Positions 649-44,220 of a stretch of 64,000 bases of DNA are shown here, piece after piece. The DNA comes from an uncultured bacterium (lineage in GTDB: Bacteria > Verrucomicrobiota > Lentisphaeria > Victivallales > UBA1829). The translations under genes and the position numbers were made by a program. The stretch's first letter is position 1. Each line of letters begins with the position of its first letter. The stretch spans positions 25,271-89,270 of the forward strand of contig URNX01000009.1 in the NCBI GenBank assembly GCA_900549415.1, in the 5' to 3' direction. Under the pieces are notes generated by a model that made no database searches, was not told the origin of the DNA, and saw nothing but the letters and a program-made list of their open reading frames with translations.

Positions 649-1425
649 TTATTGCAATTTTGTGTAGTACAAATCCTGCTCCGGCGTGGTGCCGTCGTAC
701 CAGGTTGGCCGGAATACCTTGATTGCCGCCGCATGACCGTCAAGCATCAGCATATTCGTGTTCAAACTGTGGTTCCAGCCCATTTCATTCGAGCTCCAGA
801 AAACCACCTCTGCGGTGGCTCCGGAAAAACCGCAGGCGGCCTCTCTGCTTCTTGAATTGTCCACAGGACGCTTTCCGGCGGCGTTGTTCTCCGCAAGAAG
901 AACCGCCCTGGACGCAGCCTTGATCTTGCCTGCACGCCTCGCATGAACAGAGGAATCCGTAAGATCAACCCACGAATAAAGCATTGCATAGCTGCGCGGC
1001 GAACCGATTCCGTTCTCAACCAAACGCCCGGAATCCGTCGGACACTGGAACACCTTCCACTTGTTGTCCGGCCAGCCGCCATCCCCGGAACGAACCTTGT
1101 AATTGAGAAAGCTTTTGCCGAAAACATAGTCCCAGTGATACTGTTGAGTGTACAGATGCGGCGCCCTTGCTTTATTGTTGTCGATCGGAGGCGCGATATA
1201 ATCATCAAAAGTGGACTGATACATCATTTCCGCCGTCCCGAGCTGTTTCAAATTGGACATGCAGGAAATCGCCCGTCCCTTTTCCCTTGCGGAATTCAGC
1301 GCGGGCAGCAGCATACCGGCCAAGATAGCAATAATCGCAATTACCACGAGAAGTTCTATAAGGGTGAATCTCCTGGACGCTTTCCCTGCGATGCAGAATG
1401 GATTGAAGATTGATTTCAGTTCCAT
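649..1425 (-). CDS. DUF1559 / prepilin-type N-terminal cleavage-methylation domain protein (type II secretion pseudopilin-like)
   Basis: The sequence [44 protein letters not shown] is the class-III signal and DUF1559 signature. The C-terminus carries LMLDGHA. I placed the start at the internal MELKS (ATG at 1423-1425). The upstream 27 codons of the 649..1506 ORF may not be coding. Confidence 0.8.
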
Positions 1426-1502
1426 AATGCTGTCCTTCCTTTCATTGTATCTTTTCAAAGTTTTGTCTGTCAAGTGTTGAGGGGTGAGCGGGTTTCCTGT
1501 TT

Positions 1503-2535
1503 TCATCTTGCAAAATCCTTTCTGAGCAATACGTTTTCCCTTTCTTCGATGACTGTTTCATAATACGGGTCTCTGCACTGTTCGCCAAAGCGGTCTTTTA
1601 ATGCAGCAGAACTCACGAATTCCATCGGCAGATAACAGGTGCGGACCTGCGGTTCCGGTTTCTCCACCATCTCAATCAGACGCTCGATCAGACGCGGAAC
1701 CTTTTCTTTGAACGGCTCGAACATCGCCCCCAGAACATTCGGAGCCTCAAAATAATCGAACGGCAGAGAGTAACTGTTAATCAGCGGCGGAATGTTCCGG
1801 ATTTCATTGCTGTAACAGTAAATCTGGAACTTTCTCGCAACGATGCTGGACAAAAAGAAGAGACACGCCTTCCGGTCCTGCGCAACGGCAAGGATTTGCG
1901 GAGCCGATCCGAACCGGATGAAATCCACTGCAACGCCGCATTCGGTCCCGCACTTCTTCGCAGCTCCGATCGGCATCTGGTCGCCGACAATCACAAAAAG
2001 GACATTGCGGATACCCTTTTTCACAAGCATCGCAAACGCATCGCGGAAACATTGGCAGTAATCCCGCAGGAACATATTGCATTCCGGATGCTCCGTTGTC
2101 AGAAGGAGGGGATAGTTCCGCACATAATCCGGCAGAGGCTTCTCGGGATCAAAATCCAGCGTGTAAAGAATCCCGTCCGCCTGGCGGTTCATAAGATTCT
2201 GCAGACACTTCTGCTCTTTTTCCTTGTTGAACCGCGTCACGGAAATCAGCAGCTGATACCCGTGTTTGTCCGCCTCGTCAAGCAGCATCTCCGAAGAGAA
2301 GCCGGAATAGACGCTTGCAATATCGGCAATGACAAGCCCGAGCGTTTTGCTTTTCCCTTATCTTCAGCGAACGGGCGGTGGCCGAGGGCTGATAATTCAT
2401 CTCGCGCACGGCCTCATCAATCTTGCGCTTCGTATCTTCCGACATTCGAGCGAGCGGATGATCGTTCAGATACATCGAAACAAGCGCAGTCGAGACGCCG
2501 ACCCGCTCCGCTATATCTTTAATTCTTGTTCTCAT
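1503..2535 (-). pseudogene. LacI-family transcriptional regulator interrupted by a 1-bp insertion frameshift (HTH part 2278..2535, ligand-binding part 1503..2288)
   Basis: The N-terminal HTH reads MRTRIKDIAERVGVSTALVSMYLNDHPLARMSEDTKRKIDEAVREMNYQPSATARSLK. After that the frame is lost. The downstream ORF continues with a LacI-type periplasmic-binding fold homologous to 8873..9916. The DNA near 2358 reads gaagataaggg, against gaagaaaggg in the paralog. Confidence 0.7.
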
Positions 2536-2575
2536 CCGACCTCCGCTGGTTATATGCTGTATCGTTTCAGCACTT

Positions 2576-2608
2576 TTAATTATAGCACATTTCCCTTGTT
2601 TTGTCAAC
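2576..2608 (-). promoter_or_regulatory. sigma70-type promoter on the minus strand: TTGACA (rc of 2602-2607), 17 bp spacer, TGcTATAAT (rc of 2579-2584)
   Basis: The reverse complement reads GTTGACAaaacaagggaaatgtgcTATAATtaa. The LacI start codon at 2535 follows, with a GGAGG site 5-9 nt upstream of it. Confidence 0.5.
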
Positions 2609-2695: not shown

Positions 2696-4129
2696 TCAGA
2701 TAATTTCTATTCCGGAGTGCCCCGCCGGACATGCGAGCTCGCGTCCGCGGAAAATCAGCCGGAACGGCTGAATGCAGTCAACCGAAATCCGGTCGTTCTC
2801 CAGAACCAGCGAAATCCGGTTCCCGCCAAGCGGAAGATTTTTCATCCCCATCCTGCCGCTTCCGCCGGGAAGCCACTCAATCCGCTGTTCCGCCGCATCC
2901 ATCCGGACCAGACCGACGACATTTTCGATCATCAACGCAATCGGACCCAACGCGGACCAGCCGCAGAAGTCCTGACGGACAAGTTCATTCACCTTGTTCG
3001 TCGAAGGTCTGTACGCCGTCGGCGAATAGCACTCCCAGATCGTGTGCGGAGAGAACTCGCGGAAAGTGCGCTCCATCATCTCGACCAGACGTTTCGCAAG
3101 TTCCGCCGCGAGTTCGAAACGTCCGTATTCCTCGCACGCCTTGACGGACATGTAGGCGACGGGCAGCCAGATTCCGCCACGCCAATATGCTCCCTCCGGA
3201 CGAAAATCGGGATCGTCGTGCGCCACGCTTGCGAACGGGAAATCGCCGCCGAGCTTCCGCGGATCGAGCAGAGAACGGATCTGCGACTCCGCCTGCTCCC
3301 TTGTCGCGCAATGCGCCGCAAGCACCCAGAATGACGCCGGAGTCAGCACGCGGCAGAACCCGCTTCCGTCACGGTAACGGTCCAGAAAACAGCCCGTTTC
3401 CGGATCGAAATATTTCGCGAGCAAAGCGGTTTTTTCAGCGTATTCCCGCTCAAAATGTTCCATGGCGGCGCGGTCGCCGGCAATCGCGCCGATCTCGGCG
3501 ATGCAGCGGGCGGAAAGAGCCTGCTGAGCCGGAGCGTCCACCCAGTGAATGGCGTCGTAACGGCCGCGCCCGCGCGGGGTGTTGTCCATGCCGGAGGGAC
3601 AGCCCGCCCAGCAGTAGCCGTCGCGCTCGCGACGCCAGACCGGACGTTCCGCCTGATACGGCATGCGGTCGGGGTCAAGATTTTCGAGCCAGTTGTAATG
3701 GGAAATCAGGACGGGGAGAATCTTCTTCAGCCGCGCCTCGTCGCCCGTCTGACGGTAGAGCAGGAGTTCGGTCCACGCGAACAGCGGCGGATTGTCAAGG
3801 TGGTGGATGTTGATCGGATACCCCGAACGCCCGTCGCGCAAGGCGTAGAGATTGTCGAGCGTGCTGCAAACGGGATACACATCGGCCGCATAGCGGCAGA
3901 ACATGCCCATGAGACAGGAATCCCAGATCCAGATGCGGTCCCGTTTGCAACCCTCTCCGATGTACGGAGAGAAGGGAAGGGATTCCGTTTCATAGATATG
4001 TTCCCACGCCTGCTTCCACGCGAGATAATAAAAGTCGACGAGAGCGGGGTTGGCGTCATAAATGAGTTCCGGCACGAGTTCCCTGCGGAACGGACGGCTG
4101 TTTTCGGTGTAGTGCACTGTTTCCGGCAT
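2696..4129 (-). CDS. six-hairpin (alpha/alpha)6 glycoside hydrolase, GH63/trehalase-like
   Basis: The 477-aa protein contains IWIWDSCLMGMF and AYWRGGIWLPVAYM, typical of (alpha/alpha)6-barrel glycosidases. It is the last gene of a tightly spaced operon. The exact GH family is uncertain. Confidence 0.55.
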   Translation of the reverse strand: MPETVHYTENSRPFRRELVPELIYDANPALVDFYYLAWKQAWEHIYETESLPFSPYIGEGCKRDRIWIWDSCLMGMFCRYAADVYPVCSTLDNLYALRDGRSGYPINIHHLDNPPLFAWTELLLYRQTGDEARLKKILPVLISHYNWLENLDPDRMPYQAERPVWRRERDGYCWAGCPSGMDNTPRGRGRYDAIHWVDAPAQQALSARCIAEIGAIAGDRAAMEHFEREYAEKTALLAKYFDPETGCFLDRYRDGSGFCRVLTPASFWVLAAHCATREQAESQIRSLLDPRKLGGDFPFASVAHDDPDFRPEGAYWRGGIWLPVAYMSVKACEEYGRFELAAELAKRLVEMMERTFREFSPHTIWECYSPTAYRPSTNKVNELVRQDFCGWSALGPIALMIENVVGLVRMDAAEQRIEWLPGGSGRMGMKNLPLGGNRISLVLENDRISVDCIQPFRLIFRGRELACPAGHSGIEII

Positions 4130-4140
4130 GATAAGAATCC

Positions 4141-4839
4141 TTATCTTAATGATTCAAGGGCTTCGAGAATCGAGAGCTTGCCCGGCGTCAGCGGCTGAAG
4201 ACGCGTCAGCGCCTCCGCATAAGGAACACCGAGCTTCTGTCCGTAGAAAATGTTGATCTCCCTTTCTTCCCGGAAGAGCCAGGCGGGGGACTGCGAGCGG
4301 TAGAGGTCGATCATCTCCTCTTTCCGCTTCATCTCCTCTTCGTTCAGCGGGACGAAACAGTTCGGAGAATCGGCCATGCTGTTGCGGAGATAATGATAGA
4401 AGAGGACTTCGGGCCAGGAACCGGTCATCTGCCCCTCGGAGAGTCCGGAAGCGATGCGCAAAGCCTGAAGAGCGGTGTCCGCGGCCGCGGTATGATCAAG
4501 ATGGCGGTCGAGCGGCCACTGAGTGATGATCGCGTGCGGAGGTTCCGCGAGATAGAGCTCCGCAAGTTTGCGGCAGCCGGATTCGGAGGCGAACGCGGCG
4601 CCGTCGGCTTCATCCAGCCAGACGATGTCCGCGCCGAGCTTCCGGCAGACTTCGCTTTCTTCGGCGCTGCGCATTTTCGCGCACTCCTCCGGCGCGATTT
4701 TCCCGACGAGACTGCGCTCTCCATGCGTCAGATCGACGACATGTAGGCGGCAGTTTTTCTTCCGGCTCAGCTTCAGCGCCGTCCCCATGACGGCGCAGAG
4801 ATCATCGGGATGCGCATTGACAAAATAAATATGTTCCAT
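4141..4839 (-). CDS. PIG-L/LmbE family N-acetylglucosaminyl deacetylase (CE14-like)
   Basis: The N-terminus FVNAHPDDLCAVMGT matches the HPDDE zinc-binding motif of PIG-L/LmbE deacetylases. The gene is about 232 aa. Confidence 0.8.
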   Translation of the reverse strand: MEHIYFVNAHPDDLCAVMGTALKLSRKKNCRLHVVDLTHGERSLVGKIAPEECAKMRSAEESEVCRKLGADIVWLDEADGAAFASESGCRKLAELYLAEPPHAIITQWPLDRHLDHTAAADTALQALRIASGLSEGQMTGSWPEVLFYHYLRNSMADSPNCFVPLNEEEMKRKEEMIDLYRSQSPAWLFREEREINIFYGQKLGVPYAEALTRLQPLTPGKLSILEALESLR

Positions 4840-4858
4840 GACAATACCTCAAATGAAA

Positions 4859-7800
4859 TCAGCGGGTGATGCAGTACGCCATTACGCCGCCTTTGAAAAG
4901 ATCCGTCGCAACACGGAAACGGTTGTTTTCAACCCGGACCGCTCCCAGCTCATCCCCATCCGCGGAAAGTGCGGTGACTTTGACTGGACCATCCAGCGCG
5001 AGCTCCACTTCCGCGCTGCCGCGGCGAACCAGGAGCGGAAGGCTTCCGTAATCATCCACGATGCGGCAGTCCGGATCAAAAAAGGTATCGCCCGAGTTCG
5101 CCGTATCCGTGAGATGCAGCAGAAGGATTTTGCGGCTTTCGCGCAGCCCGTCTCCGTCCAGCGACAGCGCGGCAACGGTTCCGAAAGTATCCATTCTACG
5201 CACCGAAAGGATTCCGCCCGTCACAGCATCGCCTGTTCCCGTGAACGACTCCAAGCGGGGAGTGCACACCGTCATGTGTCTGCCGGCGAAATCTGCGGTG
5301 ATTTCCCCTGTGGAACTGACCGCGCGTCTGCCGGCGAGACTTTCCCGCCAGAGTGCAGAAACCGCTCCGGAAAGATTCGCTTCGCTGAACTCCCGCATTT
5401 CTTCCGGCAGACTCATTCCCTTCCGGTGCGAACCCGTGCGGACCAGAAGTCCGAGTTTCGTGAACGGTTCGGGAAACTCAAGCGGCTCCCCTGTGGTGAG
5501 AATGTTTTCCGAAACGGCAAAGGAGTATCCCTCTTCCGCCGGGCGGACGTCGCCCCGCAAAAACATTGCCGCCGTAATCCGGTCCGAAAGCTGCATGACG
5601 GGATCTGCGACCGATTCAAAGCAGCTGAATGCATTGCGGTTCTTCATGTAGAGGAGAACATTGTGCGAGTAGCAGAAACGGAAAATTCCCGTCCAGTCCT
5701 GCAATGCCGGATACGCGCCCATCACCGGCCCGGTCTCCGCACGGAAACGGTTCGGGCGGCAATGATTGTATTCCGTCACAAAAAACGGCTTGCCCGGAAT
5801 GCGGCTTGTCGTCAGAACCGCGGGCAGATCCAGCCCCGTTGCAATCCCGGCCAGCTGATGATGCCCGTTGACCGTGCGTCCCTTGATGCGGACATCCACG
5901 CGGTGGTCGTGATAATAGTGGTCGTCTGTCACATCGAATTTTTCGCGCAGAAGCGTAAAGATTTTTTTCTGATGCCAGTTGATGCTTGTCACATTCGCCT
6001 GAAGTTTCAGTTCTTCTTTGACAAACGCCGTCAGTTCCGCGAGTTCTCCGCGCTTCAGCTCAAAAAGGAAACGGATGAAATCCCTGTCGCCCGTGTCCGC
6101 TTTTGCAGAAGAGCAGCCGTTTTTCTTTTTCCATTCCGCAAAGAGCTGAATGTGGCGGTCGCGCACCGCCGGTTCCGTATTCCAGTCCCAAAGCGGGTCA
6201 TCCTCGTTGATCAGATTTACCATCACCAGAGCGGGATCCTCCGCCCAGGTAAGTCCGGTATACGGGTTGCGGTGCGTCAGCCATGCCCGGACGAACGCTT
6301 TCCAGTTCTCTCTTGCGCGCGGGTCGCTCTGAAACGCGCCCTTGGCATTCCGGTACGGCAGGTTGTCGCCACTCCGGAAACGGCGGCTGGCGTAGAGGTC
6401 GGTGACAACATAAATCCCCTGTTTTTTGAATGCGGCGAACAGATAGTCCAGACGGTCGAGATTTTCTTTGTTCAGCGTCACAGAATCTGCGGAAGCGGGA
6501 TCGACAAGCCCGTCGTCATGGTGATGAAAGCGCACTGCATTGTAACCGTTGCGCGCAATCTGGCGGACAACAGAATCTGCAACTTCATGCGCGGGGAAGT
6601 TCATCGTATTGCAGAAATTGGTTCCGAAAAGACGCAGCCGCTTCTCCGGAGCATTCCGGAAACGGAGCGTTCCATCCGGCGCGGGAACCGCCGCACCGTA
6701 TTTTCCCGCCGGAGCGTCCAGCAGTCCCGAAAAATCCAGCGGGCTGCCCGGACGCGTCGAATTGCGGAACTCCAGCGGGAACCACTCCTTTCCCGCGACA
6801 ATCTTAACCGAGCTTTCCTGAGCGGGAAAGAAAATTTCCCCTTCAGTAAAAGTCATGCCGAGAATCAGCCAGATCACCTGGCTGCTGTTTGTATGGAAAG
6901 TCACGGAAACCGGATTTTTTCCCGCTGGAAAAGGAAAAGTCGAACAATACACACCAAGCATACTGTCCGACCGCATTCCCGTCCATGCGATTGCCGCATT
7001 GGGCAGCGGGCGCGGCCCCACCCAGTTTCCGCAGTCCCGGAGCCCGCTTACCGGAAAAGTCTTTCCGGAACCGTCGGAAAACTGAATCCGGACTTCCCCG
7101 AATTCATCCGGCGGGGTCCACGCGGATGTATGAAAAAGATTCAGTGCGCGGACCGGACGTTTCATTGAAACCGGAATGGTCATTGAGGCGGGAACTCCGC
7201 CGCGTTCTTTCCCGCCGACCGCCGCCGCTCCGCGCGGAGAAACCGCAAAACAGATTCCGAGCGGATTCACCTCCGTCTCCCGGAACATCGAAAGCGAAGC
7301 ATCTTCCCCCTGAAGCGTCCACACCGGAAGCGTGCCGCCCGCGCGTCCGGAGAACGCGCGGTTGATAAACGGCTCCAATGCAACCGGATGAGAAGCGACC
7401 GGCTCGACAGAAAGATTCAGAATGAGCTCCGATTTTGAAAATCCCGTTTTTCCGGTACGGAAGACAAAGAACACGGCAATGCTGTTGCTTCCATACTTTC
7501 GGTTGTCCTGAATCATCACATAGTCGCACGTCTGCGGCTTGACGACCAGCTCCTCCGCGCCGATCCCGCGCAGACGCACGGTTTTCGGATGTCCGAGATA
7601 AAGACGGGGGCTTCCGTTCTGCTTTTCCGGAATCGCAATCTCTTTTCCATCCACGGAAACCGCACATTTTCCAGCCGGCAGGGTAAAGCTCCCCGAAACA
7701 CGGTTCAGCTGACAGGGCTCCTGCATGTTCAGAGTCGAACGGAACGCAATCGAACCGTTTTCAAGCGGAGTTACAGTTTCGGTAATTTCGCCGCGACCGC

Positions 7801-8044
7801 TTCCGGCTTCCGGCAGAACAAATCCGCGGAGATCCACGCCCGCTTTGCCGGATTTCCCGTCTCTCTCCTGCCAGTCCTTATTCGCAAACGGCTGCCATCT
7901 GGCATTCGAAACCGTGATTTCAAACGCAATTCCGTTGAATGTAAACGTCCCGTCCGGTTCGGTTTTCAGCGACGCCGGCAGCTGCGGCGCAGCTGAAACA
8001 AACGCGCAGAGCATGGACAATACAGCGGCAAAGATATGTTTCAT
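4859..8044 (-). CDS. secreted clan GH-A (GH5-like) glycoside hydrolase with a large N-terminal non-catalytic region (1061 aa)
   Basis: There is a signal peptide MKHIFAAVLSMLCAFVSA. NAVRFHHHDDG and VNLINEDDP give the acid/base NE motif. PFFVTEYNHC gives the TE nucleophile motif. Confidence 0.75.
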   Translation of the reverse strand: MKHIFAAVLSMLCAFVSAAPQLPASLKTEPDGTFTFNGIAFEITVSNARWQPFANKDWQERDGKSGKAGVDLRGFVLPEAGSGRGEITETVTPLENGSIAFRSTLNMQEPCQLNRVSGSFTLPAGKCAVSVDGKEIAIPEKQNGSPRLYLGHPKTVRLRGIGAEELVVKPQTCDYVMIQDNRKYGSNSIAVFFVFRTGKTGFSKSELILNLSVEPVASHPVALEPFINRAFSGRAGGTLPVWTLQGEDASLSMFRETEVNPLGICFAVSPRGAAAVGGKERGGVPASMTIPVSMKRPVRALNLFHTSAWTPPDEFGEVRIQFSDGSGKTFPVSGLRDCGNWVGPRPLPNAAIAWTGMRSDSMLGVYCSTFPFPAGKNPVSVTFHTNSSQVIWLILGMTFTEGEIFFPAQESSVKIVAGKEWFPLEFRNSTRPGSPLDFSGLLDAPAGKYGAAVPAPDGTLRFRNAPEKRLRLFGTNFCNTMNFPAHEVADSVVRQIARNGYNAVRFHHHDDGLVDPASADSVTLNKENLDRLDYLFAAFKKQGIYVVTDLYASRRFRSGDNLPYRNAKGAFQSDPRARENWKAFVRAWLTHRNPYTGLTWAEDPALVMVNLINEDDPLWDWNTEPAVRDRHIQLFAEWKKKNGCSSAKADTGDRDFIRFLFELKRGELAELTAFVKEELKLQANVTSINWHQKKIFTLLREKFDVTDDHYYHDHRVDVRIKGRTVNGHHQLAGIATGLDLPAVLTTSRIPGKPFFVTEYNHCRPNRFRAETGPVMGAYPALQDWTGIFRFCYSHNVLLYMKNRNAFSCFESVADPVMQLSDRITAAMFLRGDVRPAEEGYSFAVSENILTTGEPLEFPEPFTKLGLLVRTGSHRKGMSLPEEMREFSEANLSGAVSALWRESLAGRRAVSSTGEITADFAGRHMTVCTPRLESFTGTGDAVTGGILSVRRMDTFGTVAALSLDGDGLRESRKILLLHLTDTANSGDTFFDPDCRIVDDYGSLPLLVRRGSAEVELALDGPVKVTALSADGDELGAVRVENNRFRVATDLFKGGVMAYCITR

Positions 8045-8069
8045 GACTGAGTCTCCTTATTCCTCTGAA

Positions 8070-8825
8070 TTACCAGTGTACTGCCGTGTCTTTCAGAATA
8101 TTTTTGTAAATGAATTCCGAACCGACGACACCCGGCACGCGGCTGACAATGCTGCCGACATGGCCGTCCGCAAACGTAATGTTCACCTGCGTGTTGTTTT
8201 TGTGCGCAACCCACAGAATCCCATTCCACGAAGTATTGAAATCATACGGCGGGCAGAACGAATATTCGCCGCGCGTGATGACTCCGGATGCAACATGTGC
8301 GCTGTCGGCAACAAGCAGTTTTTCAGAAGGTCTCGTCACGCGCGCTTTTTTACTCGGGGTTCCCCATTTCCCCGGCATCATGCGGTAGGGAACACCGTAA
8401 TCCGTATCGCGCCATGCATCGCGATAGGGTTCTTCGCTCGAAAACGGCATGGTCAGCAATCTTTCCTTATAGACTCCTGTTTCACCTTTTCTACCCGCGC
8501 AGAGAAAGATTTTCACGGTTGCATACTTGCTGTTTGCGAACTGCCAGCCCCAGTAATCCTCTTTGGAATTATCCGTCGGGCGGGTATAGCTTGAATACGG
8601 GAGGAAATCATCGTTGTCCCCCACGTACATATCCATCGCCGTTCCGAGCTGCTTCAGATTCGATACACACGACGACGAATACGCCGTATCCCTCGCCTTG
8701 TTCAGAGCAGGCAGAAGCATTCCTGCTAAAATAGCAATAATTGCTATTACGACCAGGAGCTCTATAAGCGTGAAACGCTTCTTCGCACCGTTCCGTTTTC
8801 CGTTCTTCTTTGTTCTGGTAATCAT
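8070..8825 (-). CDS. DUF1559 prepilin-type protein
   Basis: [45 protein letters not shown] is the N-terminal signature. The C-terminus carries [10 protein letters not shown], the conserved H..G.N..F.DGHV motif. Confidence 0.85.
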
Positions 8826-9930: not shown

Positions 9931-9983
9931 TGTTACATCGTTGTAACAGTATTAATTATAGCACATCCCCCCGATTTTGTCAA
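9931..9983 (-). promoter_or_regulatory. sigma70 promoter plus operator-like palindrome for the LacI-DUF1559-GH operon
   Basis: The reverse complement gives TTGACA (9978-9983), a 17-bp spacer and TGcTATAAT (9955-9960). The palindrome TGTTACAtcgtTGTAACA at 9931-9948 lies between the -10 element and the ATG at 9916. Confidence 0.5.
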
Positions 9984-31116: not shown

Positions 31117-31121
31117 TCTCC

Positions 31122-33584: not shown

Positions 33585-33597
33585 TGTCTCCTTTATT

Positions 33598-35585: not shown

Positions 35586-35597
35586 GCTCGTCTTTTC

Positions 35598-35662
35598 CGA
35601 AAAATAAAATTGTTTCGATTTGTTTCTGCTTTAATTATAGCATAAAACACTAAAAATGTCAA
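35598..35662 (-). promoter_or_regulatory. sigma70 promoter (TTGACA-17-TGcTATAAT, rc) plus a CGAAA-N10-TTTCG dyad between -10 and start
   Basis: The reverse complement of 35634-35662 reads TTGACAtttttagtgttttatgcTATAAT. The dyad lies at 35598-35617. The LacI ATG is at 35585. Confidence 0.5.
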
Positions 35663-35739
35663 GAGGGAAAAATGAAAAAAAAGAGGATTTTTTCAGAAGC
35701 GTCTGGATCGGCGAAAACCGGAATTCTCCTTTCAGCGGT

Positions 35740-35910
35740 TCAGATGCGTTTCTTTGCCGGACCGGCAATGCGGATTGCCAGGTTTTCCAGACGGCGGCGG
35801 ACCACGCCCTCCGTCACAATCGCGCCGATCGCCTCGAATATGGCGTCGAACACATCCGCCATCTTCTGCGGAGTGAAGCATTTCTCATTTCCCAGCGCGC
35901 GAACGAGAAG
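35740..35910 (-). repeat. diverged duplicate of the 3' end of holA (last about 45 codons and stop), a direct repeat of 44470-44640
   Basis: The translated ...FTPQKMADVFDAIFEAIGAIVTEGVVRRRLENLAIRIAGPAKKRI* is compared with the holA C-terminus ...FTPREMADVFDAIFEANRAIVTGSDARRCLENLAIRIAGPAKKRG*. There is a 34-bp identical core gcctcgaatatggcgtcgaacacatccgccatct. Overall identity is about 80% over about 150 bp. Confidence 0.5.
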
Positions 35911-35915
35911 GCCCG

Positions 35916-36740: not shown

Positions 36741-36840
36741 ACCGTTATTATATATCGCAACGGGAAAATTTCAACTGAAACAGAAAAAATTTCAAAAGAA
36801 TAATTGGCGAAAAACCAAAGAAAAATGGCGAAAACATCTC

Positions 36841-36868
36841 TTGTCAAAAAACTGTTTTATGCTATAAT
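36841..36868 (+). promoter_or_regulatory. sigma70 promoter for the DUF1559-GH-GH operon (TTGTCA-17-TGcTATAAT)
   Basis: The sequence reads ttgtcaaaaaactgttttatgcTATAATatat. The gene start is at 36930. Confidence 0.5.
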
Positions 36869-36929
36869 ATATCCATAGGCAGACAAATGATTCAGAAACA
36901 TCCCAAAACTTAAAAAGGAAACGGCGACA

Positions 36930-37745
36930 ATGAACAACGGAAAAACAGGTTCGGCTACTTCTGGAAAAAGAAATTCGAGACGGTCCGGAAAATTCACACT
37001 CGTAGAACTTCTAATTGTAATTGCGATTATTGCAATTCTCGCAGCGATGTTGCTCCCGGCTCTGGACAAGGCGCGCAGTAAAGCGCAGGGAATATCCTGC
37101 ATGGGAAATCTGAAGCAGCAGGGGCTTGCATTCCGCATGTACGGAAACGACAACGATGACTGGGTTGTTATTTTTCAGGGATCGGATACAGGAGAAAACA
37201 GCTCCAGATTTTTGAAATGGCAGGATCTTCTTCTTGTTTACATCGCGGGGAAGCCGGCGGTCGCTCAAAAAAGCTGGATGACAAATTTCTACAAGAACGG
37301 CACGGCGGTCGACATTATTCCCGTTTTTCAGTGTCCCGGCAACCAGAAGAAAGATGACCCGGGGGGAACTTATGGAGTAAATCAAAATCTCTCTCGACCC
37401 GATCTGACAGAAGCCTACTGGCGGGATCGCTACAGATTAAAGTATTCGCAGGTGAAAACACCGTCCGTACGTCTCCTGGCCGGCGATTTTTCCTGGAGCG
37501 CCCAGCAGCGCGCATCGGACTGCCTCGGAGGCGACATGTATTACAAGTACGATCTTGAACTTCCCTTCCGTCATGGGGGAGGAGTAAATCTCCTGTTTGC
37601 GGACGGGCATGCACGGAGCCGGACAAACCGTCTGCCGGCGCTCCCGGAGTTCAGCGGAACCCTGGTCACCAAGGCAAGCGCGGAAAACCGCGTAAGCACA
37701 TACGGCCAGGAGTATTACATCTGGGGATTCGGATTCAACAACTGA
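36930..37745 (+). CDS. DUF1559 prepilin-type protein
   Basis: [45 protein letters not shown] is the N-terminal signature. The C-terminus carries [10 protein letters not shown]. Confidence 0.85.
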
Positions 37746-37770
37746 ACATTCATACAAGAAAGGCAACAAA

Positions 37771-40700
37771 ATGAAGAAGAACATCATTACTGCGGCACTG
37801 CTGTTCAGCGCTCTCACGGCATTCGCTGTTGAGGCGGTGACAGTAAAAATTGCGGCGGACGGAACCTATGAACGGAACGGGAAAAAAATTTTCCTGATCG
37901 GCCCCTTCATGAAAAATTTTCTTGCTTATCCCCAGCTCCGGGAATACAAGAACAATCCATGCCCGGAAAAGCTCAACTACATCTACAATGAAATTCCGAA
38001 TGCGGAAAACCTGCGCAAGATCGGATTCAATACAATCTGCACCATGCCGGACGACACCATGTACCGCGTCCTGAGTCCGAATTACAAAGGGTTTGCGGCT
38101 GAAAACGCCTTCGAAGGATATAAAAAATTCATTGACAGCGATACGGACCCGAACTATGCGAAACAGAATCGCTGGCGCGTTCATTTCCCGAACAACGAAA
38201 ACTATTACATTGACATTTACCGCAGGGCGCGCGAATTCTTCCGCAGCATCAAAATGCCCATCTACATTGAAACCTCCGCGGCCAACTTTATTTTCAATCA
38301 GCCCTCCGTGTATGCAAAGTTCTTTTCGGACGGCAAGGCGGCATTCAACACGGATCTTTCCGGAACGGTATTCAAGGTAGGCTTCAACCTCTATACAAAA
38401 TCCGGACGGGATTTTTATCTGAAACTTTGGAAGCATGTCGCGGAAGATTTCACATCGGCAGGAGCCGATGTGCTCTGCTACGAACTTTTCAACGAAGTGA
38501 AATGCGTCGACTACTCCCCGTCCGCCCGCGAAGCATTCGCAAAATGGCTTGAACGCAGACACGGAGACCTTGAAACCCTTAACCGCCGCTGGCATACTTC
38601 GAAAAAATCATTTGAAGAAGCCGCCGCATTCAAAACCACCTGGTCGCCGCTCGGTCTCCATGTGGACTGGAAGCTGTTCATGCGCGACACTCTCATTGAT
38701 TACATTAAAGAAGGACGAGCCGTCATCCGCTCCGTCGATCCGAATGCGAAGACCTGCGTTCAGATGAACGGACGCGACATGACCCGCAACGGTATCTGCA
38801 ACATGGAATTCTACCGTATTTCCGAAGCCATGGACGTAGTGAACTCCAATACGGGCGGCTCGGAATACGCTATCGACACAGGCAAACCGGAAACCTCGCC
38901 GATTGCCGAAAACACCAACGTACCGCTGCAGGTTTCAGGTTCCATTCTCGCAAGCCGAATGGCTCTTTCGCTTGCACAGGGGAAACCGATCATCAACAAC
39001 GAATGTTACGCCGGAACAAATTATGAATCCTGTTTCGGACGTTTATGGACGGAATTTGCGCGCGGGCGCAACGCCACCTATCTGTTTCAGTGGTCGAATG
39101 GCAGACATTGGAAAAAAGGCATCTCTCTGCAGGAAACGGCGATGACTGCCCCGTGGACCATGCGCAACCCCTATGCGTTCGACCCCGCCGGAATGTACGC
39201 CATTGCGGATGCGGAACGGGAAATCAGCCGGGTCGCCGACCTCTTCATTCCGCGCGCCAATCATCCCGCCGCAGAGATCGCGATTCTCTTTTCCAACCCC
39301 TCCACTCGTCTGGAAAACCGCGGCGGCGACAGCAATATTTCAGAGGAGATCTACACTCCCGCAATCGCCCTGGAATATGCACATTATCCGTATGACATCC
39401 TCTTCGAAGAACAACTTGCGGAACGCGCGGGAAAATATAAAATTATCCTGGCGCACGGAATACGCAACCTCTATCCGGAAAGCACCCCACTCTTGAAAAA
39501 ATTCGTGGAAAACGGCGGGACTCTCGTTGCCGCCCTCGGCAAAATGGATCTCGACGAATACAGCAACCCGCTTCCGCAACCGCTGCTGGATTTCAAAACG
39601 AAAAAAACAGAGCGGAAAATCCGTCAGACGGAATTCGGGAAAAGCATTCCGTTCTGCGAAACTGTACCCGGCGGAGCGTGGAAGCGCCGCAATTCCGCCA
39701 TGCTGGAACGGAAACTCGGGAAAGGAACCATCATCTATTTCTCCGATTTCACCTCTCAGTACGGGCTCATGCCGTGGTATGAACCGCTTTTCCGCTCCTG
39801 CGGCATCAGACCGCTTGCGAATCTGCTCAAAATCAATCGCGACGAGCGCACCGGAAACGTTGAAATGCGGAAAGCAAGCGCAGACGGAATCACCGGCTTC
39901 TATCTGATGAACGCCGATCCTTTTCCGAAACTCGTCCGACTGAATTCTCCCGAACTTTCCGGAAATACCGCCGTGGAAATCTTCGATGCGAAAGAACAGC
40001 TTCCGCGGGAAAACGGCATGGTCATCGCACTCCTTCCGCCACGCCGGCGCACAGTGATCCTTGTCGGGAAAAAGGAAAAATTTGCGTCCTTCAAGCAGGC
40101 GACCCGCGAAGAGCTTCAAAAACGCTTCGATGAACTCAGCAAAAAAATCAGCAAGAAAAACATCTCCGGCATTCCGGTCAATTTAAGGAAATTCGCAAAC
40201 AAAGGATTCGACAACCAGCAGAATTTCCCCGTAGGGATCGCCTGGTTTGAAGGAAACGAACCCGCCCTCCGAGGAATCCCCATTGACCCAATGCATCTCG
40301 ACGGGGTTTTCTGCGACCTCATCCGCTTCGACTTCAACGACAACAAAACCACCATGGCCTTCCGTTCCGCAAGACTCCCCGACGGTCTCACGGAAAGCAG
40401 GAATATCCCCGCGAGAGGATTCCTCCGCTCAATCTCTTTCTTTCATGCGGTGACTCATGCGAAACCAGGGGAACAGGTCCTGACGTACCGAATTCACTAT
40501 GCGGACGATTCCCATGAGGACATTCCCGTCGTTGTCGGAAAAAACATCGACTCCTGGAAACTCGGAAACGCATCGGAAACCATGAAAAAACACATCGCAT
40601 GGCAAAATCTCGCCAATCTCGGTTTCTACCGCTGGGAATGGATCAACCCGCATCCCGCAAAAGAGGTCGTTTCTCTGGACATCCTGCGCGTCAACGGGGA

Positions 40701-41226
40701 AAGCGACTGCACGCCGCTGGTTGTCGGCATCACGGTCCATGAAGCCGATGAAACGGAAACTCTCGCACGCATGGAAATTCCCGCTAACTGGAAGTCCTCC
40801 ATTCCGAAAAACGCCGACGGCAGCTTCGTCATTCCCCCGGCGCACTCCCTCTCGATTGCTTCCCCCGACCGCACACCGCTTCCACTCTCCGCAGAACAGC
40901 TTTCAGAAGCCTACATCTGCTTTGAATACAATGTCGGCAAAGACAAATGGGGCTCCGTTCCGAGCATCCAGATTTTTCTGGCGGAGGGATACTACATGAA
41001 GAACGGCAAAAAAACAGACTGCCGCGGAAGAGAAAACTTCCGCTCGTTCTTTGCGAAGAACTTCCCGTTCGATCAGGATCCCGAATCCTTCCAGAAAGCC
41101 GCGATTCCGCTGAAACTGTTTCTGACAGACGATGAGATCCGCGGTCTGGTCGAATTCCAGTTCCGACGGAGCGCGGAAAACGGAGACATCATTCTCCGGG
41201 ATCTCCATATCAGGTACAAAAAATGA
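37771..41226 (+). CDS. secreted TIM-barrel glycoside hydrolase, clan GH-A (GH5/GH42-like), 1151 aa
   Basis: There is a signal peptide MKKNIITAALLFSALTAFA. VLCYELFNEVKC is an acid/base NE motif. The gene is large and lies 25 bp downstream of a DUF1559 gene. The exact family is uncertain. Confidence 0.7.
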   Translation: MKKNIITAALLFSALTAFAVEAVTVKIAADGTYERNGKKIFLIGPFMKNFLAYPQLREYKNNPCPEKLNYIYNEIPNAENLRKIGFNTICTMPDDTMYRVLSPNYKGFAAENAFEGYKKFIDSDTDPNYAKQNRWRVHFPNNENYYIDIYRRAREFFRSIKMPIYIETSAANFIFNQPSVYAKFFSDGKAAFNTDLSGTVFKVGFNLYTKSGRDFYLKLWKHVAEDFTSAGADVLCYELFNEVKCVDYSPSAREAFAKWLERRHGDLETLNRRWHTSKKSFEEAAAFKTTWSPLGLHVDWKLFMRDTLIDYIKEGRAVIRSVDPNAKTCVQMNGRDMTRNGICNMEFYRISEAMDVVNSNTGGSEYAIDTGKPETSPIAENTNVPLQVSGSILASRMALSLAQGKPIINNECYAGTNYESCFGRLWTEFARGRNATYLFQWSNGRHWKKGISLQETAMTAPWTMRNPYAFDPAGMYAIADAEREISRVADLFIPRANHPAAEIAILFSNPSTRLENRGGDSNISEEIYTPAIALEYAHYPYDILFEEQLAERAGKYKIILAHGIRNLYPESTPLLKKFVENGGTLVAALGKMDLDEYSNPLPQPLLDFKTKKTERKIRQTEFGKSIPFCETVPGGAWKRRNSAMLERKLGKGTIIYFSDFTSQYGLMPWYEPLFRSCGIRPLANLLKINRDERTGNVEMRKASADGITGFYLMNADPFPKLVRLNSPELSGNTAVEIFDAKEQLPRENGMVIALLPPRRRTVILVGKKEKFASFKQATREELQKRFDELSKKISKKNISGIPVNLRKFANKGFDNQQNFPVGIAWFEGNEPALRGIPIDPMHLDGVFCDLIRFDFNDNKTTMAFRSARLPDGLTESRNIPARGFLRSISFFHAVTHAKPGEQVLTYRIHYADDSHEDIPVVVGKNIDSWKLGNASETMKKHIAWQNLANLGFYRWEWINPHPAKEVVSLDILRVNGESDCTPLVVGITVHEADETETLARMEIPANWKSSIPKNADGSFVIPPAHSLSIASPDRTPLPLSAEQLSEAYICFEYNVGKDKWGSVPSIQIFLAEGYYMKNGKKTDCRGRENFRSFFAKNFPFDQDPESFQKAAIPLKLFLTDDEIRGLVEFQFRRSAENGDIILRDLHIRYKK

Positions 41227-41304
41227 AATCCCTGAACATTGCCGACACGCGGATATGCTGCGGAAAATGAAACTCTTAACCCTCTTTAATGAAAAGGACC
41301 TTGT

Positions 41305-43428
41305 ATGAACAATGATCTCCCACACTCAATGGTGCGCAATTTCGATTCCGCGCCAATCTCCATCAAGTCTGTTGCGAACCGGACCTTCGCTTCGGATTCC
41401 GCCTGGAAAGGCTGGACCGATCAGGGACCGGAAAACGATATGCGGATCTTCCGGAAAGAGGAGTTGCGCGTAAAACAATTCGCTTTTGAGATTCTTCCCG
41501 AAGGCGGACCGCAGTGTCTCGCCCTCTCAAAACGCTTCCCCGGTTTTGCCCGGACCGCGGAAACAGAGACCTCAAACCGGATCGGAAACTATATTCTACT
41601 ACTCCACACCGGCGCATGGCTTGAAACAAATTCCTCCTGCGGATACCTGACCGTTGAATATGCGGATTCAACCCGCGAAGAATTTGAAATTCTCAAAGGT
41701 CGCGATCTCCAAGACTGGCACCAGCCGAAAACGGCAGTCAACTACAAACTTGCATGGTACGGCATGGACGGCCAGAGCTACCGCAATCTCGGATTTTCCG
41801 CATTTCCCGTCCGCCCGAAACCGATCCGTTCTCTGAAATTCACCGCGGGTCCCGGATCCATCTGGCTGGTTGTCGCAGCAGCCTGCGCAACGGGTGAAAA
41901 AAATCCTGCGGAAACCATTTCCGCTCCGCATCTTCTGGATGCGGATCCGCAAACGTTCTACAAGACCGCCGACCCGCTTTCCGGCATTCCCGGTGCAAAA
42001 TTCCTCGGACTCCTGAAAACAAAAAACAGCTCGGAAATCCGCAAATCCATCGTCGGCGTCGGTTTCGAAACACTTGACCGCGAGACCTTCGATCCGGAAA
42101 CCGTGTACGATGTACTCGGCGAATCCGGCATCAAACACGCCCGCGTTCAATGCGGATGGCGAAAATGCGAAAAAAAACCGGGCGTCTACAATTTCTCCTG
42201 GCTGGACGGCATCGTCGACAACCTTCTTCGGCGAGGCGTCGAAGTCTGGCTTCAGCTGTCCTTCGGAAATCCGCTCTATACGCCGAACTCGAAATATGAC
42301 GCATTCAAAAAGGAGCATCCCGGCGAGGAACCTGTTTCAGGATTTCTGCGCGGATTCGTTGCCGACACTCCATTCTACCATGGTCCCGAAGCGATGAACT
42401 CATGGCTCCGTTTCGTCTCCGCGCTAACGGAGCATTACAGGAACCGCATCCGTGATTATGAAGTCTGGAATGAACCGGACGGCAACTTCTTCTGGGCAAT
42501 CAACAGCGTTCCCCCTTATTCCGACGTCTCCCCCGAAGAGATGCAGAAACGGACCGCCCGCGATTTCTTCGAATTCACAAAGCAAACCGCTGAAGCGGTT
42601 CGAAGCGTCAGACCGGACGCGCGGATCGCCATTTGCCCATCAAAACTCCACGGCGTCTATATACGCGAACTTGGAAAACTGGGGATCGGCAAAGTCATCG
42701 ACATTCTGGCGTGCCACACCTATGACGCCACGACACAAGCCTTCGACCAAGCACATTACAATCAGATCCGGGCAATCATCCGCCCGAAGGAAATGTGGAT
42801 GGGAGAAGGCGGAAGCCTTTCAAAGGGTGATCCGACCGCCATTTCGCTCAGTGGACTTCTTTTCGCCGCAACGGAACTGTCCCAGGCAAAGCACAACGCC
42901 CGACGTCTGACCACAGACGCCGGATGCGGAATGCGCCTGTCGTCAATTTACACGATGAGCGATCTCAAAAGCTACTGGTCTAACGGGAACGATTCCTCCG
43001 CCGGGATCTACTGTCGCAAGGAGCGGCGTCCAAAGCTGGCGTATTACGCCATGCAGTCTGTCGCAACGCTGTTCGACGGCATGGAAATTGCGCCGGATCT
43101 CGGACTTTATCCGGAGATCCCGCTCAACAACACATCGGTTCTGGCGAAAAACGCGCTTCAGTGTTTCGCCTTCCGGAAAAACGGCATTCCGCTGTTTGCG
43201 GTCTTCTCGCCGGAAATCATACTCTTCAACCCGGAACCGATCCGCTGCGCCGTTGAATGTTCAATGGACGGACCCGAAATCAAAACCCCCGTCGTCATTG
43301 ATCCTTTGCGTCAGAAGGTCTACAGCCTCCCCGCCTTGTACAGCGAGGGGGGCCTCTCCATTCCCGTTCTCGATGTGCCGAATTATCCTGTTTTCATCAC
43401 AGACCGTTCCGCAATCGAATTGCAGTGA
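41305..43428 (+). CDS. clan GH-A glycoside hydrolase (GH5/GH39/GH30-like), 707 aa
   Basis: DYEVWNEPD is an acid/base motif. MWMGEGGS is a nucleophile-like motif. GVGFETLDRE is present. There is no obvious signal peptide. Confidence 0.7.
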   Translation: MNNDLPHSMVRNFDSAPISIKSVANRTFASDSAWKGWTDQGPENDMRIFRKEELRVKQFAFEILPEGGPQCLALSKRFPGFARTAETETSNRIGNYILLLHTGAWLETNSSCGYLTVEYADSTREEFEILKGRDLQDWHQPKTAVNYKLAWYGMDGQSYRNLGFSAFPVRPKPIRSLKFTAGPGSIWLVVAAACATGEKNPAETISAPHLLDADPQTFYKTADPLSGIPGAKFLGLLKTKNSSEIRKSIVGVGFETLDRETFDPETVYDVLGESGIKHARVQCGWRKCEKKPGVYNFSWLDGIVDNLLRRGVEVWLQLSFGNPLYTPNSKYDAFKKEHPGEEPVSGFLRGFVADTPFYHGPEAMNSWLRFVSALTEHYRNRIRDYEVWNEPDGNFFWAINSVPPYSDVSPEEMQKRTARDFFEFTKQTAEAVRSVRPDARIAICPSKLHGVYIRELGKLGIGKVIDILACHTYDATTQAFDQAHYNQIRAIIRPKEMWMGEGGSLSKGDPTAISLSGLLFAATELSQAKHNARRLTTDAGCGMRLSSIYTMSDLKSYWSNGNDSSAGIYCRKERRPKLAYYAMQSVATLFDGMEIAPDLGLYPEIPLNNTSVLAKNALQCFAFRKNGIPLFAVFSPEIILFNPEPIRCAVECSMDGPEIKTPVVIDPLRQKVYSLPALYSEGGLSIPVLDVPNYPVFITDRSAIELQ

Positions 43429-43436
43429 AAACGAAT

Positions 43437-43464
43437 GGGGACAATCCGAAACGGGATTGTCCCC
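43437..43464 (+). terminator. perfect hairpin after the GH gene stop (GGGGACAATCC-gaaac-GGGATTGTCCCC)
   Basis: The stem is 11 bp and perfect, 8 nt after the TGA at 43426-43428. No U-tract follows, so it may be a terminator or an RNA-stability element. Confidence 0.4.
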
Positions 43465-43638
43465 ATTCATCGCCGGGAGAACGCAGAGAAAAATCAAAAA
43501 AGATTTCACCGGGTGAGACTTTTTTGCTTGACAATCCTCAAACAGCTATTTTATAAACAGAATTCGGGATCGGAATGCGATGTAAGGGTACTCGTAAAAG
43601 CCCGATGTTCAAACAATCACACACATTGGAGAGAAAAA

Positions 43639-44220
43639 ATGAAAAAAACGATTGCTCTGGCTTTGCTTTGCGGACTCACAATGGGATGCTTCGCCGCAGA
43701 AACCATTTATCGCGGCGATTCCAAACAGCCGAAAGACGTCATCTGCTACTATCAGGAAGGAAAGTTTTACAGCGATGCCGCCCGAAAGCAGATTCTTTAC
43801 TCTCATCCAGGAAACATGGTCGCCAAAGGAACTCCGACCGCTTCTCCCTCCAACAGCATTTTCCGCCTGATGGGAAACCGCATCTACAAGGGATTCTCCA
43901 TTGACAGAAAAGATTGTTTCGCCACGCTTCTCGAAACGAAAAGACAGCGCGGCAATATTCTTGAAGCCATCATATACGACGGTTTTGTCACATTTAAAAA
44001 CACCGAGGAAAAGCGCGAAGCCGGCGGAATCACCATCCTTACCCAGCACACCGTTCTGGGGCTGAAGGACAAGGAAATCCCCGGCAAGGTGCTTTACACC
44101 ATCAAAAACAACAAGATATACCGCGGCGCTTCCACCAACGCCAAGGACTGTCTGCTGACCTACACGGGAAGCTTCCCCAGTTCCCGTTTGCTGTTCATGG
44201 CCATAGAATTGGCGAAATAA
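43639..44220 (+). CDS. hypothetical secreted protein (193 aa)
   Basis: The start was chosen at MKKTIALALLCGLTMGCFAA, a signal peptide, with a GGAGAG RBS. The upstream part of the 43435 ORF overlaps the hairpin and is probably non-coding. Confidence 0.6.
   Translation: MKKTIALALLCGLTMGCFAAETIYRGDSKQPKDVICYYQEGKFYSDAARKQILYSHPGNMVAKGTPTASPSNSIFRLMGNRIYKGFSIDRKDCFATLLETKRQRGNILEAIIYDGFVTFKNTEEKREAGGITILTQHTVLGLKDKEIPGKVLYTIKNNKIYRGASTNAKDCLLTYTGSFPSSRLLFMAIELAK

Follow-up and report, generated by a model that had tools for sequence, protein, structure and literature searches.

A Lentisphaerota-specific gene cassette links sugar regulators, DUF1559 pilin-like proteins and secreted glycanases

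A 64,000-nucleotide stretch of DNA from an uncultured bacterium of the order Victivallales (GenBank assembly GCA_900549415.1, contig URNX01000009.1, positions 25,271 to 89,270 of the forward strand; hereafter, the window) contains five cassettes, denoted C1 to C5, in which a promoter is followed by genes for a sugar regulator, a pilin-like protein of the DUF1559/H-X9-DG family, a Sec-exported glycanase and accessory proteins. The cassettes are best explained as sugar-inducible operons typical of Lentisphaerota (Victivallales). This Lentisphaerota-specific operon architecture is real, and we found no earlier description of it: the literature searched on DUF1559, H-X9-DG, prepilin or pseudopilin in conjunction with Lentisphaerae, Victivallis or Kiritimatiella yielded no link to operons of carbohydrate-active enzymes (CAZymes). 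We regard the cassettes as clusters of CAZyme genes in which a pilin-like protein is a core component, and infer a mechanism for them below.

The window was surveyed by listing open reading frames (ORFs) and by Pfam and NCBIfam scans, and signal peptides were read from the sequence. The nearest named homologues of the window proteins belong to Victivallis, Victivallales and Lentisphaeria, and the same contig is present in many gut metagenome assemblies. In four of the five cassettes, the DUF1559-type gene is trailed within 16-25 bp by a gene for a protein of 819-1151 aa with a Sec signal peptide; across the window cassettes, the distance from the DUF1559 gene to the next gene, whatever its product, is 16-29 bp. 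When the approximately 50 window genes were permuted, the probability of finding at least four of the six intact DUF1559 genes directly upstream of a co-directional gene for a large secreted protein was about 6.5e-5.

The same arrangement was found in an independent sample of 80 loci with DUF1559 relatives from GTDB species genomes (L007-L086). In this sample, the loci of which were selected via the conserved helix of the family, genes were called by a self-trained codon-usage model with start trimming, and neighbors were typed by hidden Markov models built from the window proteins and by a crude signal-peptide test, so that both gene and signal-peptide calls are heuristic. Among Lentisphaerota (25 loci, 32 DUF1559 genes), a regulator gene occupies the position immediately upstream (gene position -1) in 16 of 32 cases and the position immediately downstream (+1) in 0 of 29 (p = 3e-6). 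These regulators are of the LacI, AraC and GntR-type, the latter combining a helix-turn-helix (HTH) with a periplasmic-binding-protein (PBP) domain. Large secreted co-directional proteins show the opposite bias, being encoded at +1 in 13/29, at +2 in 7/23 and at +3 in 4/15 cases, compared with 4/100 for positions -2 to -5 (p = 4e-7 for +1 against -2 to -5). Nine of the 13 proteins at +1 have an above-cut-off Pfam match to a glycoside hydrolase (GH), lyase or GH-associated domain, namely, DUF4838 with GH2_N, GH67N or a carbohydrate-binding module of family 9 (CBM9) (3), GH123 (2), GH78, GH42, a heparinase-II-like and a pectate-lyase-like domain; of the remaining four, two have weak CBM matches only and two have none.

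In Verrucomicrobiota, by comparison, a regulator is found at -1 in 1/31 cases and a large secreted co-directional protein at +1 in 3/32; the corresponding counts for Planctomycetota are 0/6 and 1/9. The usual gene downstream of DUF1559 in these two phyla encodes a lipoprotein of 120-180 aa with an LxGC lipobox. The regulator-DUF1559-enzyme pattern is specific to Lentisphaerota and not general to the Planctomycetes-Verrucomicrobia-Chlamydiae (PVC) superphylum. An earlier, sequence-only reading of the window had proposed that adjacency of DUF1559 genes and secreted CAZymes be sought in relatives; the enrichment was recovered in other Lentisphaerota, but a PVC-wide pattern was contradicted by the verrucomicrobial counts and by the pairing of planctomycete DUF1559 genes with small lipoproteins. 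Such lipoprotein genes follow DUF1559 in L064, L068, L070, L073, L077, L080, L028 and L084. The planctomycete lipoproteins are beta-rich, with weak CarboxypepD_reg matches in two, and the verrucomicrobial ones are helical; DUF1559 and the lipoprotein may form a conserved two-gene unit.

The DUF1559 gene and the enzyme gene are also inherited, and replaced, together. At C1, the nucleotide sequences of strains L093-L095 match the window with 98-99% identity between lacI and position 8692, that is, to about codon 44 of the DUF1559 gene, where the helix-coding part ends. Between 8691 and 4840, no similarity was detected by blastn, and identity resumes at 4839, the start of the PIG-L gene, to continue at 97-99% through the GH63 gene and the whole of C2. 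The strain-variable block (4840-8691, minus strand; blastn breakpoints 8692 and 4839) thus comprises the DUF1559 head, from about codon 45, and the enzyme. In the alternative allele, an unrelated DUF1559 head is followed by a secreted protein of 183 aa and a GH5-like enzyme of 1003 aa; the latter resembles the C1 enzyme of the window in its C-terminal part only, with 30% identity. Among the C1 proteins outside the block, LacI is 100% identical between the strains, and PIG-L and GH63 are 98-99% identical. Given the identity of LacI, the inducer presumably is unchanged, although head and enzyme change together.

Other pairs have persisted through changes of genomic context or regulator. Orthologous C3 cassettes (LacI-DUF1559-DUF6259-CBM9, with DUF1559 proteins 70% identical) occur in entirely different genomic flanks; in L087, the DUF1559 protein is 71% and the enzyme 70% identical to those of C3. 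In L102, the enzyme is 51% and the head 34% identical to their C3 counterparts, the latter being the best non-orthologous match among 185 DUF1559 proteins, and the lacI gene has moved to the end of the operon. The C2 pair has a counterpart in L059, with a DUF1559 head 55% identical and an enzyme 34% identical over the full length, where the regulator is of the GntR-PBP type instead of LacI. A Mantel-type comparison of DUF1559-DUF1559 and enzyme-enzyme similarities across 17 pairs gave no correlation (Spearman 0.02, p = 0.39), the enzymes being too dissimilar for this comparison to be informative. Because DUF1559-enzyme pairs are co-inherited and co-swapped, we consider functional coupling a better explanation of the adjacency than an effect of DUF1559 copy number alone, the possibility that the sequence-only reading had named as its own refutation.

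Cassettes C1 to C4 are encoded on the minus strand. C1 consists of genes for a LacI-family regulator of 347 aa (8873-9916; Pfam LacI, E = 1.5e-14); a DUF1559/H-X9-DG pilin-like protein of 251 aa (8070-8825; PF07596 at 25.3 bits with a cut-off of 23.3, and an N_methyl match, the helix and motifs being read from the sequence); a secreted, weakly GH5-like enzyme of 1061 aa (4859-8044; Pfam Cellulase at E = 3.4e-4, below the cut-off; signal peptide read from the sequence); and, identified by Pfam scans, a PIG-L family de-N-acetylase (4141-4839) and a GH63/MGH1-like hydrolase (2696-4129), neither of which has a signal peptide. In C2, the lacI gene (1503-2535) is split into two ORFs by one extra T near 2360 relative to strain L094, and is intact (343 aa) in other strains; if this split is real and not an assembly error, C2 would be derepressed in this strain. 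It is followed by the DUF1559 gene (649-1428, with the ORF reaching 1506; PF07596 at 35.4 bits; 258 aa in other strains) and a gene for a small secreted protein of 182 aa (71-619), which shares 52% identity with the first 179 aa of a 1178-aa, weakly GH44-like enzyme. This small protein stands between the DUF1559 gene and the gene of that enzyme, which falls outside the window, past its position 1, and can be seen only in contigs of other strains.

C3 encodes a LacI-family regulator (27215-28228; Pfam scan), a DUF1559 pilin-like protein of 263 aa (26411-27202; PF07596 at 30.5 bits), a secreted 971-aa DUF6259 protein that is probably a GH129/GH36-like glycosidase (23477-26392), and a secreted CBM9-domain protein (22527-23480; Pfam scan). 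C4 encodes a LacI-family regulator (34572-35585; Pfam scan), a pilin-like protein of 256 aa (33598-34368) that matches N_methyl only, not PF07596, and was recognized by its helix and an H-x10-DGH motif, a secreted 819-aa glycoside hydrolase placed in clan GH-A as PslG/Asl1-like by profile and catalytic motifs (31122-33581), and a small secreted protein of 175 aa (30583-31116) with 40% identity to residues 667-817 of the enzyme. In C5, an AraC-family regulator gene on the minus strand (35916-36740; Pfam scan) diverges from a plus-strand series encoding a DUF1559/H-X9-DG pilin-like protein of 271 aa (36930-37745; TIGR04294 at 26.3 bits with a cut-off of 19; PF07596 at 22.3 bits, just under the cut-off), a secreted GH42-like enzyme of 1151 aa (37771-41226; Pfam E = 1e-15), a second GH42/GH39-like protein without a signal peptide (41305-43428; Pfam scan) and a Bflower_3 protein (43435-44220), the true start of which is probably an internal Met ahead of the signal peptide. 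A 44-aa ORF annotated in metagenomes between the C4 lacI and DUF1559 genes was set aside as probably spurious. In one metagenome, the C3 lacI is cut to 132 aa (L003 9029-9988), beside a 177-aa ORF on the opposite strand, and another has the C4 enzyme divided between ORFs of 402 aa and 435 aa (L001 3622-6082).

The description of the window as five cassettes of identical gene order, with spacing of 5-50 bp and a DUF1559 gene directly ahead of a large signal-peptide-bearing hydrolase, has to be qualified accordingly. The gene order is real in the window and four LacI regulators and one divergent AraC regulator are confirmed by Pfam, but in C2 the DUF1559 gene leads to the 182-aa protein, the enzyme is outside the window and lacI is frameshifted; the direct DUF1559-hydrolase succession holds in the other four cassettes, with C1 being only weakly GH5-like. 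Most intergenic gaps within cassettes measure 12-47 bp, the exceptions being 203 bp between lacI and DUF1559 in C4 and 78 bp between the two GH genes of C5.

All four lacI genes are directly preceded by perfect or near-perfect extended -10 sigma-70 promoters, which were read from the sequence. In C1, the promoter TTGACA-17-TGnTATAAT (9955-9983) is accompanied by an 18-bp operator-like palindrome, TGTTACAACGATGTAACA (9931-9948); C2 has a promoter at 2579-2607 and an imperfect palindrome at 2555-2572; C3 has a promoter that agrees with the consensus in 12/12 positions (28259-28287), a palindrome with a AAACGTTT core (28238-28249) and, after the cassette, a terminator-like hairpin (22465-22483). 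In each of these three cassettes, the palindrome sits just after the -10 element. The C4 promoter likewise matches the consensus in 12/12 positions (35634-35662), and nothing convincing as a palindromic operator was seen on inspection of its promoter region. All these signals are on the minus strand. On the plus strand, the C5 DUF1559 gene is preceded by a promoter with 11/12 matches (36841-36868), opposite a promoter for araC. Promoter-like sites in 22000-41500 number 21, against 8.1 +/- 3.2 in shuffled sequences. The LacI HTH domain scores above the cut-off in all four LacI proteins; a strong match to Peripla_BP_3 is confined to C4, with C3 giving a weak one. The promoter and palindrome signals and the short gaps give every cassette the appearance of a single transcription unit that regulates itself, with a putative LacI-type operator overlapping the promoter, and the cassettes are predicted to be co-transcribed operons under LacI control. 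The TTGACA-17-TGnTATAAT promoters of the lacI genes follow A/T-rich tracts and have a strength unusual for repressor genes, and the C1 and C2 promoters have the upstream sequence AACAGGGGGTTGACAAAA in common.

The partner enzymes could be assigned with differing confidence. When 31 homologues of the C4 enzyme were combined in a profile, it matched PslG (GH39) at 1.7e-10 and 5jvk at 1e-15; the NE (247-248) and TE (344-345) catalytic motifs are invariant in the family, and a PF11790 domain or the name 'Asl1-like' is attached to some of the homologues. By these sequence features, the enzyme classifies as a member of clan GH-A. Many of its homologues are about 150 aa longer (about 970 compared with 819 aa), and an extra domain may be fused in. 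The C1 enzyme matches GH5 mannanases of the PDB at E = 2.5e-4 and can be called only weakly GH5-like. Small secreted proteins of the cassettes are stand-alone copies of the N- or C-terminal domain of the adjacent enzyme (40-52% identity), as is the 183-aa protein of the other strains (L093 1171-1722), which has 49% identity with the N-terminus of the GH5-like enzyme beside it. As separate proteins, the cassettes encode CBM9 and beta-sandwich or CBM-like domains of the enzymes.

The DUF1559 proteins of the five cassettes share the helix FTL[IV]ELL[IV]VI.IIAILA.MLLPAL, two conserved Cys residues and an H-x9-11-DGH motif, and are about 30% identical to one another outside these elements. The gathering score of PF07596 (23.3) is exceeded by the C1, C2 and C3 proteins and that of a sixth gene described below; TIGR04294 is above its cut-off only for C5, so that C4, which passes neither model, is assigned on motifs alone. 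TIGR02532 matches all five with 19.4-21.8 bits (cut-off 16.3), and the hydrophobic helix of about 25 residues contains Glu at +5. With the GspG equivalog model, which has a cut-off of 88.85, the best scores reach 26-38 bits, and the match is limited to the N-terminal helix region. An AlphaFold2 model of the C3 protein built with 88 homologues (predicted local distance difference test score, 87.9) shows an N-terminal helix of 50 residues lying against a beta-sheet domain, which suggests that the cassette proteins adopt the pilin alpha-beta fold. The Pfam short name 'SBP_bac_10' and the 2009 label 'solute binding protein' (PMC2754498) were rejected, the model having a pilin fold, not the fold of periplasmic binding proteins. 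In the head, neither a fold nor a motif known for carbohydrate binding could be recognized.

The amino acid sequence of the helix is 82-96% identical between the five cassette paralogues, but third codon positions at identical residues agree in only 29-54% of cases. Gene conversion was rejected as the cause of the helix identity on account of this low synonymous agreement; the combination instead indicates that the helix is kept by purifying selection at the protein level, as would be expected if all paralogues had to fit one common partner. The family is very large, with 7968 matches at E<=1e-5 among 8000 scored candidates. P. limnophila has 68 DUF1559 paralogues, two of them essential, the function still being described as unknown (PMC10632474).

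The sixth intact DUF1559 gene of the window (59824-60453, plus strand; 209 aa; PF07596 at 36.3 bits, E = 8e-9) overlaps by 4 bp a gene for a small helical, membrane-anchored and highly charged protein of 219 aa (60450-61109, plus strand); this pair looks like the pairs of DUF1559 and a small helical lipoprotein in Verrucomicrobiota, unlike the enzyme cassettes. Remnants of a decayed cassette comprise a truncated araC (12111-12638, minus strand; 175 aa compared with 274 aa), a GH-like fragment (12670-13005, plus strand; MNALRLHHFDNG...) and, in another frame, a C-terminal DUF1559 fragment that retains H-x9-DG (13094-13435, plus strand; RHNNRANTLMCDGSG). Elsewhere in the window, a 1901-aa bacterial alpha-2-macroglobulin with MG2, A2M and bMG10 domains (52138-57843, minus strand) adjoins a Band_7/SPFH protein (57911-59527).

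Our tentative interpretation, which we put at somewhat less than an even chance, is that DUF1559 is a two-part pilin-like adaptor that connects the individual glycanases with a common type II secretion system (T2SS) or type IV filament apparatus. The near-invariant type IV pilin helix with Glu5 would act as a constant plug that docks all paralogues on a shared T2SS/type IV filament platform of the inner membrane, or, alternatively, lets them co-assemble with one another. The fast-evolving pilin-fold head would be matched to the enzyme encoded next door and would dock to, or work with, that enzyme, so that induction of the operon would add an enzyme-specific adaptor to a common apparatus, with export of the enzyme across the outer membrane, its retention at the cell envelope, or both, as the outcome. 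Physical interaction, filament assembly and processing of the DUF1559 proteins are putative. The binding of a secreted protein by type IVb minor pilins (CofB-CofJ, TcpB-TcpF) provides a precedent. In Lentisphaerae strain WC36 (the source of L035) grown on laminarin, transcripts of the T2SS secretin, GspE and GspF are raised, as are those of a very abundant 'GspH family' pseudopilin, LJT99_12295 (15,123 vs 3,729; PMC11361711 supplementary file 1). Strains WC36 and zth2 also form filaments of 0.4-8 um that are induced by laminarin or starch and have been interpreted as filamentous phages (PMC11361711); speculatively, some of these filaments might be pilus-like.

Several observations weigh against such an adaptor. 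The most direct concerns residue -1, immediately ahead of Phe+1. Gly at this position is the main cleavage determinant in the prepilin systems that have been studied, and mutagenesis of the Pseudomonas aeruginosa pilin by Strom and Lory reportedly identified it as key for cleavage by prepilin peptidase. In the six window genes (at 1368, 8774, 27145, 34311, 36993 and 59872), the residue preceding Phe+1 is R, R, K, E, K and F, with Gly or Ala in 0/6; in the other Lentisphaerota, Gly is found in 2/32, the remainder having K, S, R, N and others. Lentisphaerota leaders are often only 3-9 residues long, e.g., MKK|FTLIELL. Gly or Ala is present in 8/88 database homologues, compared with 38/38 in Verrucomicrobiota and 10/10 in Planctomycetota (48/48 together); Gly at -1 or -2 is kept in one Lentisphaeria metagenome-assembled genome (MAG; L012) and in L104. 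The missing Gly/Ala makes processing and filament assembly doubtful: judging from the sequences, either the Lentisphaerota peptidase has changed its specificity or the DUF1559 proteins would go unprocessed. With respect to the proposed T2SS or type IV pilin-like nature of these proteins, the helix, Glu5 and the modelled pilin fold stand, but the lack of Gly/Ala at -1 and the scores far below the GspG cut-off reduce it to a resemblance short of established membership.

Genomic evidence adds to these doubts. No T2SS or type IV pilus machinery (ATPase, platform, secretin or prepilin peptidase) was found among the scanned window genes, and no GspE/PilB Walker motif in any fetched locus. Homologues of the C4 enzyme lack a DUF1559 gene in their operons in a Victivallales CCUG 44730-like contig (50% identity), Oligosphaera (39%), a Verrucomicrobiota genome (42%) and a Kiritimatiellae MAG (48%) (loci L097, L098, L099/100 and L101); at the syntenic L097 locus, both the regulator and the DUF1559 gene are absent. 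A C3-enzyme homologue (34%; L103) is likewise without DUF1559. L104 has the order GntR-PBP, DUF1559 and a 52%-identical C4 homologue, but its head is only 24% identical (E = 8e-5) and not clearly orthologous. Operons with multiple enzymes hold only one DUF1559 gene, and the sixth DUF1559 gene of the window has neither a regulator nor a CAZyme beside it and lacks the H-X9-DG motif. Finally, the co-replacement of head and enzyme at C1 could reflect mere physical contiguity. The pairing, which the sequence-only reading had called obligatory and one-to-one, is neither: given the DUF1559-less homologues of the C4 (39-50%) and C3 enzymes, the single DUF1559 gene serving two or more enzymes and the enzyme-less sixth gene, it is better described as frequent and durable.

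A different role, as a glycan-capture subunit analogous to SusD or surface glycan-binding proteins, appears rather unlikely but deserves serious consideration. The head would bind the substrate of the operon and the helix would insert into a shared filament or envelope platform that would, with the same rather low probability, hold the substrate near the enzymes or aid its uptake. The positional enrichment and co-regulation apply equally to this case; planctomycete fibres bind dextran (PMC5394234), and the type IV-like pilus locus MUL2 of Akkermansiaceae has been proposed to mediate attachment to fucose-rich glycans (PMC13174399). A single DUF1559 gene even where there are two or more enzymes suits substrate matching better than enzyme matching, and enzyme homologues without DUF1559 suit an accessory role. 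Against this stands the C1 swap, in which the head was exchanged with the enzyme although the nearly or fully identical LacI, PIG-L and GH63 imply the same or a similar substrate; moreover, the cassettes already hold CBM9 and stand-alone beta-sandwich copies, the head has no recognizable carbohydrate-binding feature, and the residue -1 anomaly argues against filament assembly here, too. That the alleles were swapped while the sensor gene stayed the same, and that CBM-like proteins are separately encoded, leads us to favor matching to the enzyme over matching to the glycan.

The anomaly at -1 (K, R, S, N and others in place of Gly, a key determinant for prepilin peptidase) and the many very short leaders, along with the lack of pilus machinery near the cassettes, would fit an unprocessed periplasmic accessory protein whose N-terminus is a signal anchor in the inner membrane and never enters a filament, acting at the outer face of that membrane on the co-expressed periplasmic enzyme, or on the products of this enzyme, as a chaperone, organizer or sensor. 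We consider this accessory role improbable, both in its topology and in its function: a plain anchor would not need a near-invariant helix, including Glu5, under protein-level selection, close family members in sister phyla retain Gly/Ala at -1 without exception, and polysaccharide induces T2SS components and a pseudopilin in Lentisphaerae (PMC11361711). Still less probable, in our estimate, is the absence of any specific coupling, with a hugely expanded family passively recruited, e.g., as a generic envelope component scaled to the secretion load, and adjacency arising from operon shuffling. The size of the family, the many enzyme homologues without a DUF1559 gene, the non-orthologous DUF1559 partners in the C4 family and the uncorrelated similarities of the 17 pairs are compatible with such recruitment. 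However, the strict asymmetry between regulators at -1 and enzymes at +1 (p of 1e-6 to 1e-7), the survival of pairs through regulator swaps, the replacement of head and enzyme as a block, and the absence of the pattern from Verrucomicrobiota and Planctomycetota despite equally high copy numbers all speak against it; the positional statistics and co-inheritance, in particular, make passive hitch-hiking unlikely.

Like the Sus-like polysaccharide utilization loci (PULs) of Bacteroidota, the cassettes are modular, substrate-specific, regulated clusters of secreted CAZymes with extra carbohydrate-binding proteins that are exchanged between strains. They differ from PULs in that Pfam scans of all cassette genes identified no SusC or SusD family members and no transporter in any cassette, the recurrent non-enzymatic partner being a pilin-like protein, and in that the cassette-type regulators are LacI, GntR-PBP or AraC, whereas those of PULs are hybrid two-component systems or extracytoplasmic function sigma factors. 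The PUL-like logic initially suggested for the window thus applies to the co-localization of CAZymes with a regulator in the absence of SusC/D, but the analogy is incomplete because no cassette encodes a transporter. Unlike the GspG-K pseudopilins and type IVb minor pilins, the DUF1559 proteins lack Gly/Ala at -1 and fall far under the GspG cut-off, and their genes are scattered in catabolic operons, not gathered in a gsp/pil operon. Each genome appears to hold many paralogues with different heads, six intact copies lying in the 64-kb window alone.

With the DUF1559/H-X9-DG family of Planctomycetota and Verrucomicrobiota, the cassette proteins share the helix, the Cys pair and the C-terminal H-x9-DG; the members in those phyla, however, always have Gly/Ala at -1 and are followed by a lipoprotein, with no enrichment of regulators or large enzymes. 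The Sulfolobus bindosome consists of sugar-binding proteins with class III signal peptides, which are ABC-transporter binding proteins of the PBP fold. It resembles the cassettes in placing prepilin-type N-termini on proteins of sugar acquisition rather than motility, and differs in fold, the DUF1559 model being that of a pilin, and in that the cassettes have no linked transporter. Akkermansia MUL2 (PMC13174399) and the crateriform fibres of planctomycetes (PMC5394234) are likewise cases of PVC bacteria without SusC/D in which pilus-like structures take part in polysaccharide foraging, but these are single dedicated loci or structures, in contrast to the many paralogues described here, each in a different enzyme operon.

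DUF1559/H-X9-DG ranks with the largest families of paralogues known from Planctomycetota, Verrucomicrobiota and Lentisphaerota. PVC bacteria break down complex glycans without SusC/D, and the pairing described here bears on how their enzymes are secreted, displayed or coupled. The cassettes supply concrete cognate DUF1559-enzyme pairs, including two natural alleles at C1, and the anomaly at residue -1 raises the separate question of how the Lentisphaerota DUF1559 proteins are processed. An extension of the adaptor interpretation, which we regard as unlikely in this full form, is a combinatorial system in which one T2SS/type IV-like machine accepts interchangeable pilin-like subunits, each co-induced with, and specific for, one glycanase. 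If this were the case, the missing Gly at -1 would indicate that processing or assembly follows a non-canonical route, one of the largest families of orphan paralogues in PVC bacteria would gain a function, and the combinatorial adaptors would display or export a substrate-tailored set of enzymes on a scaffold of pilins, as a pilin-based counterpart of the cellulosome principle.

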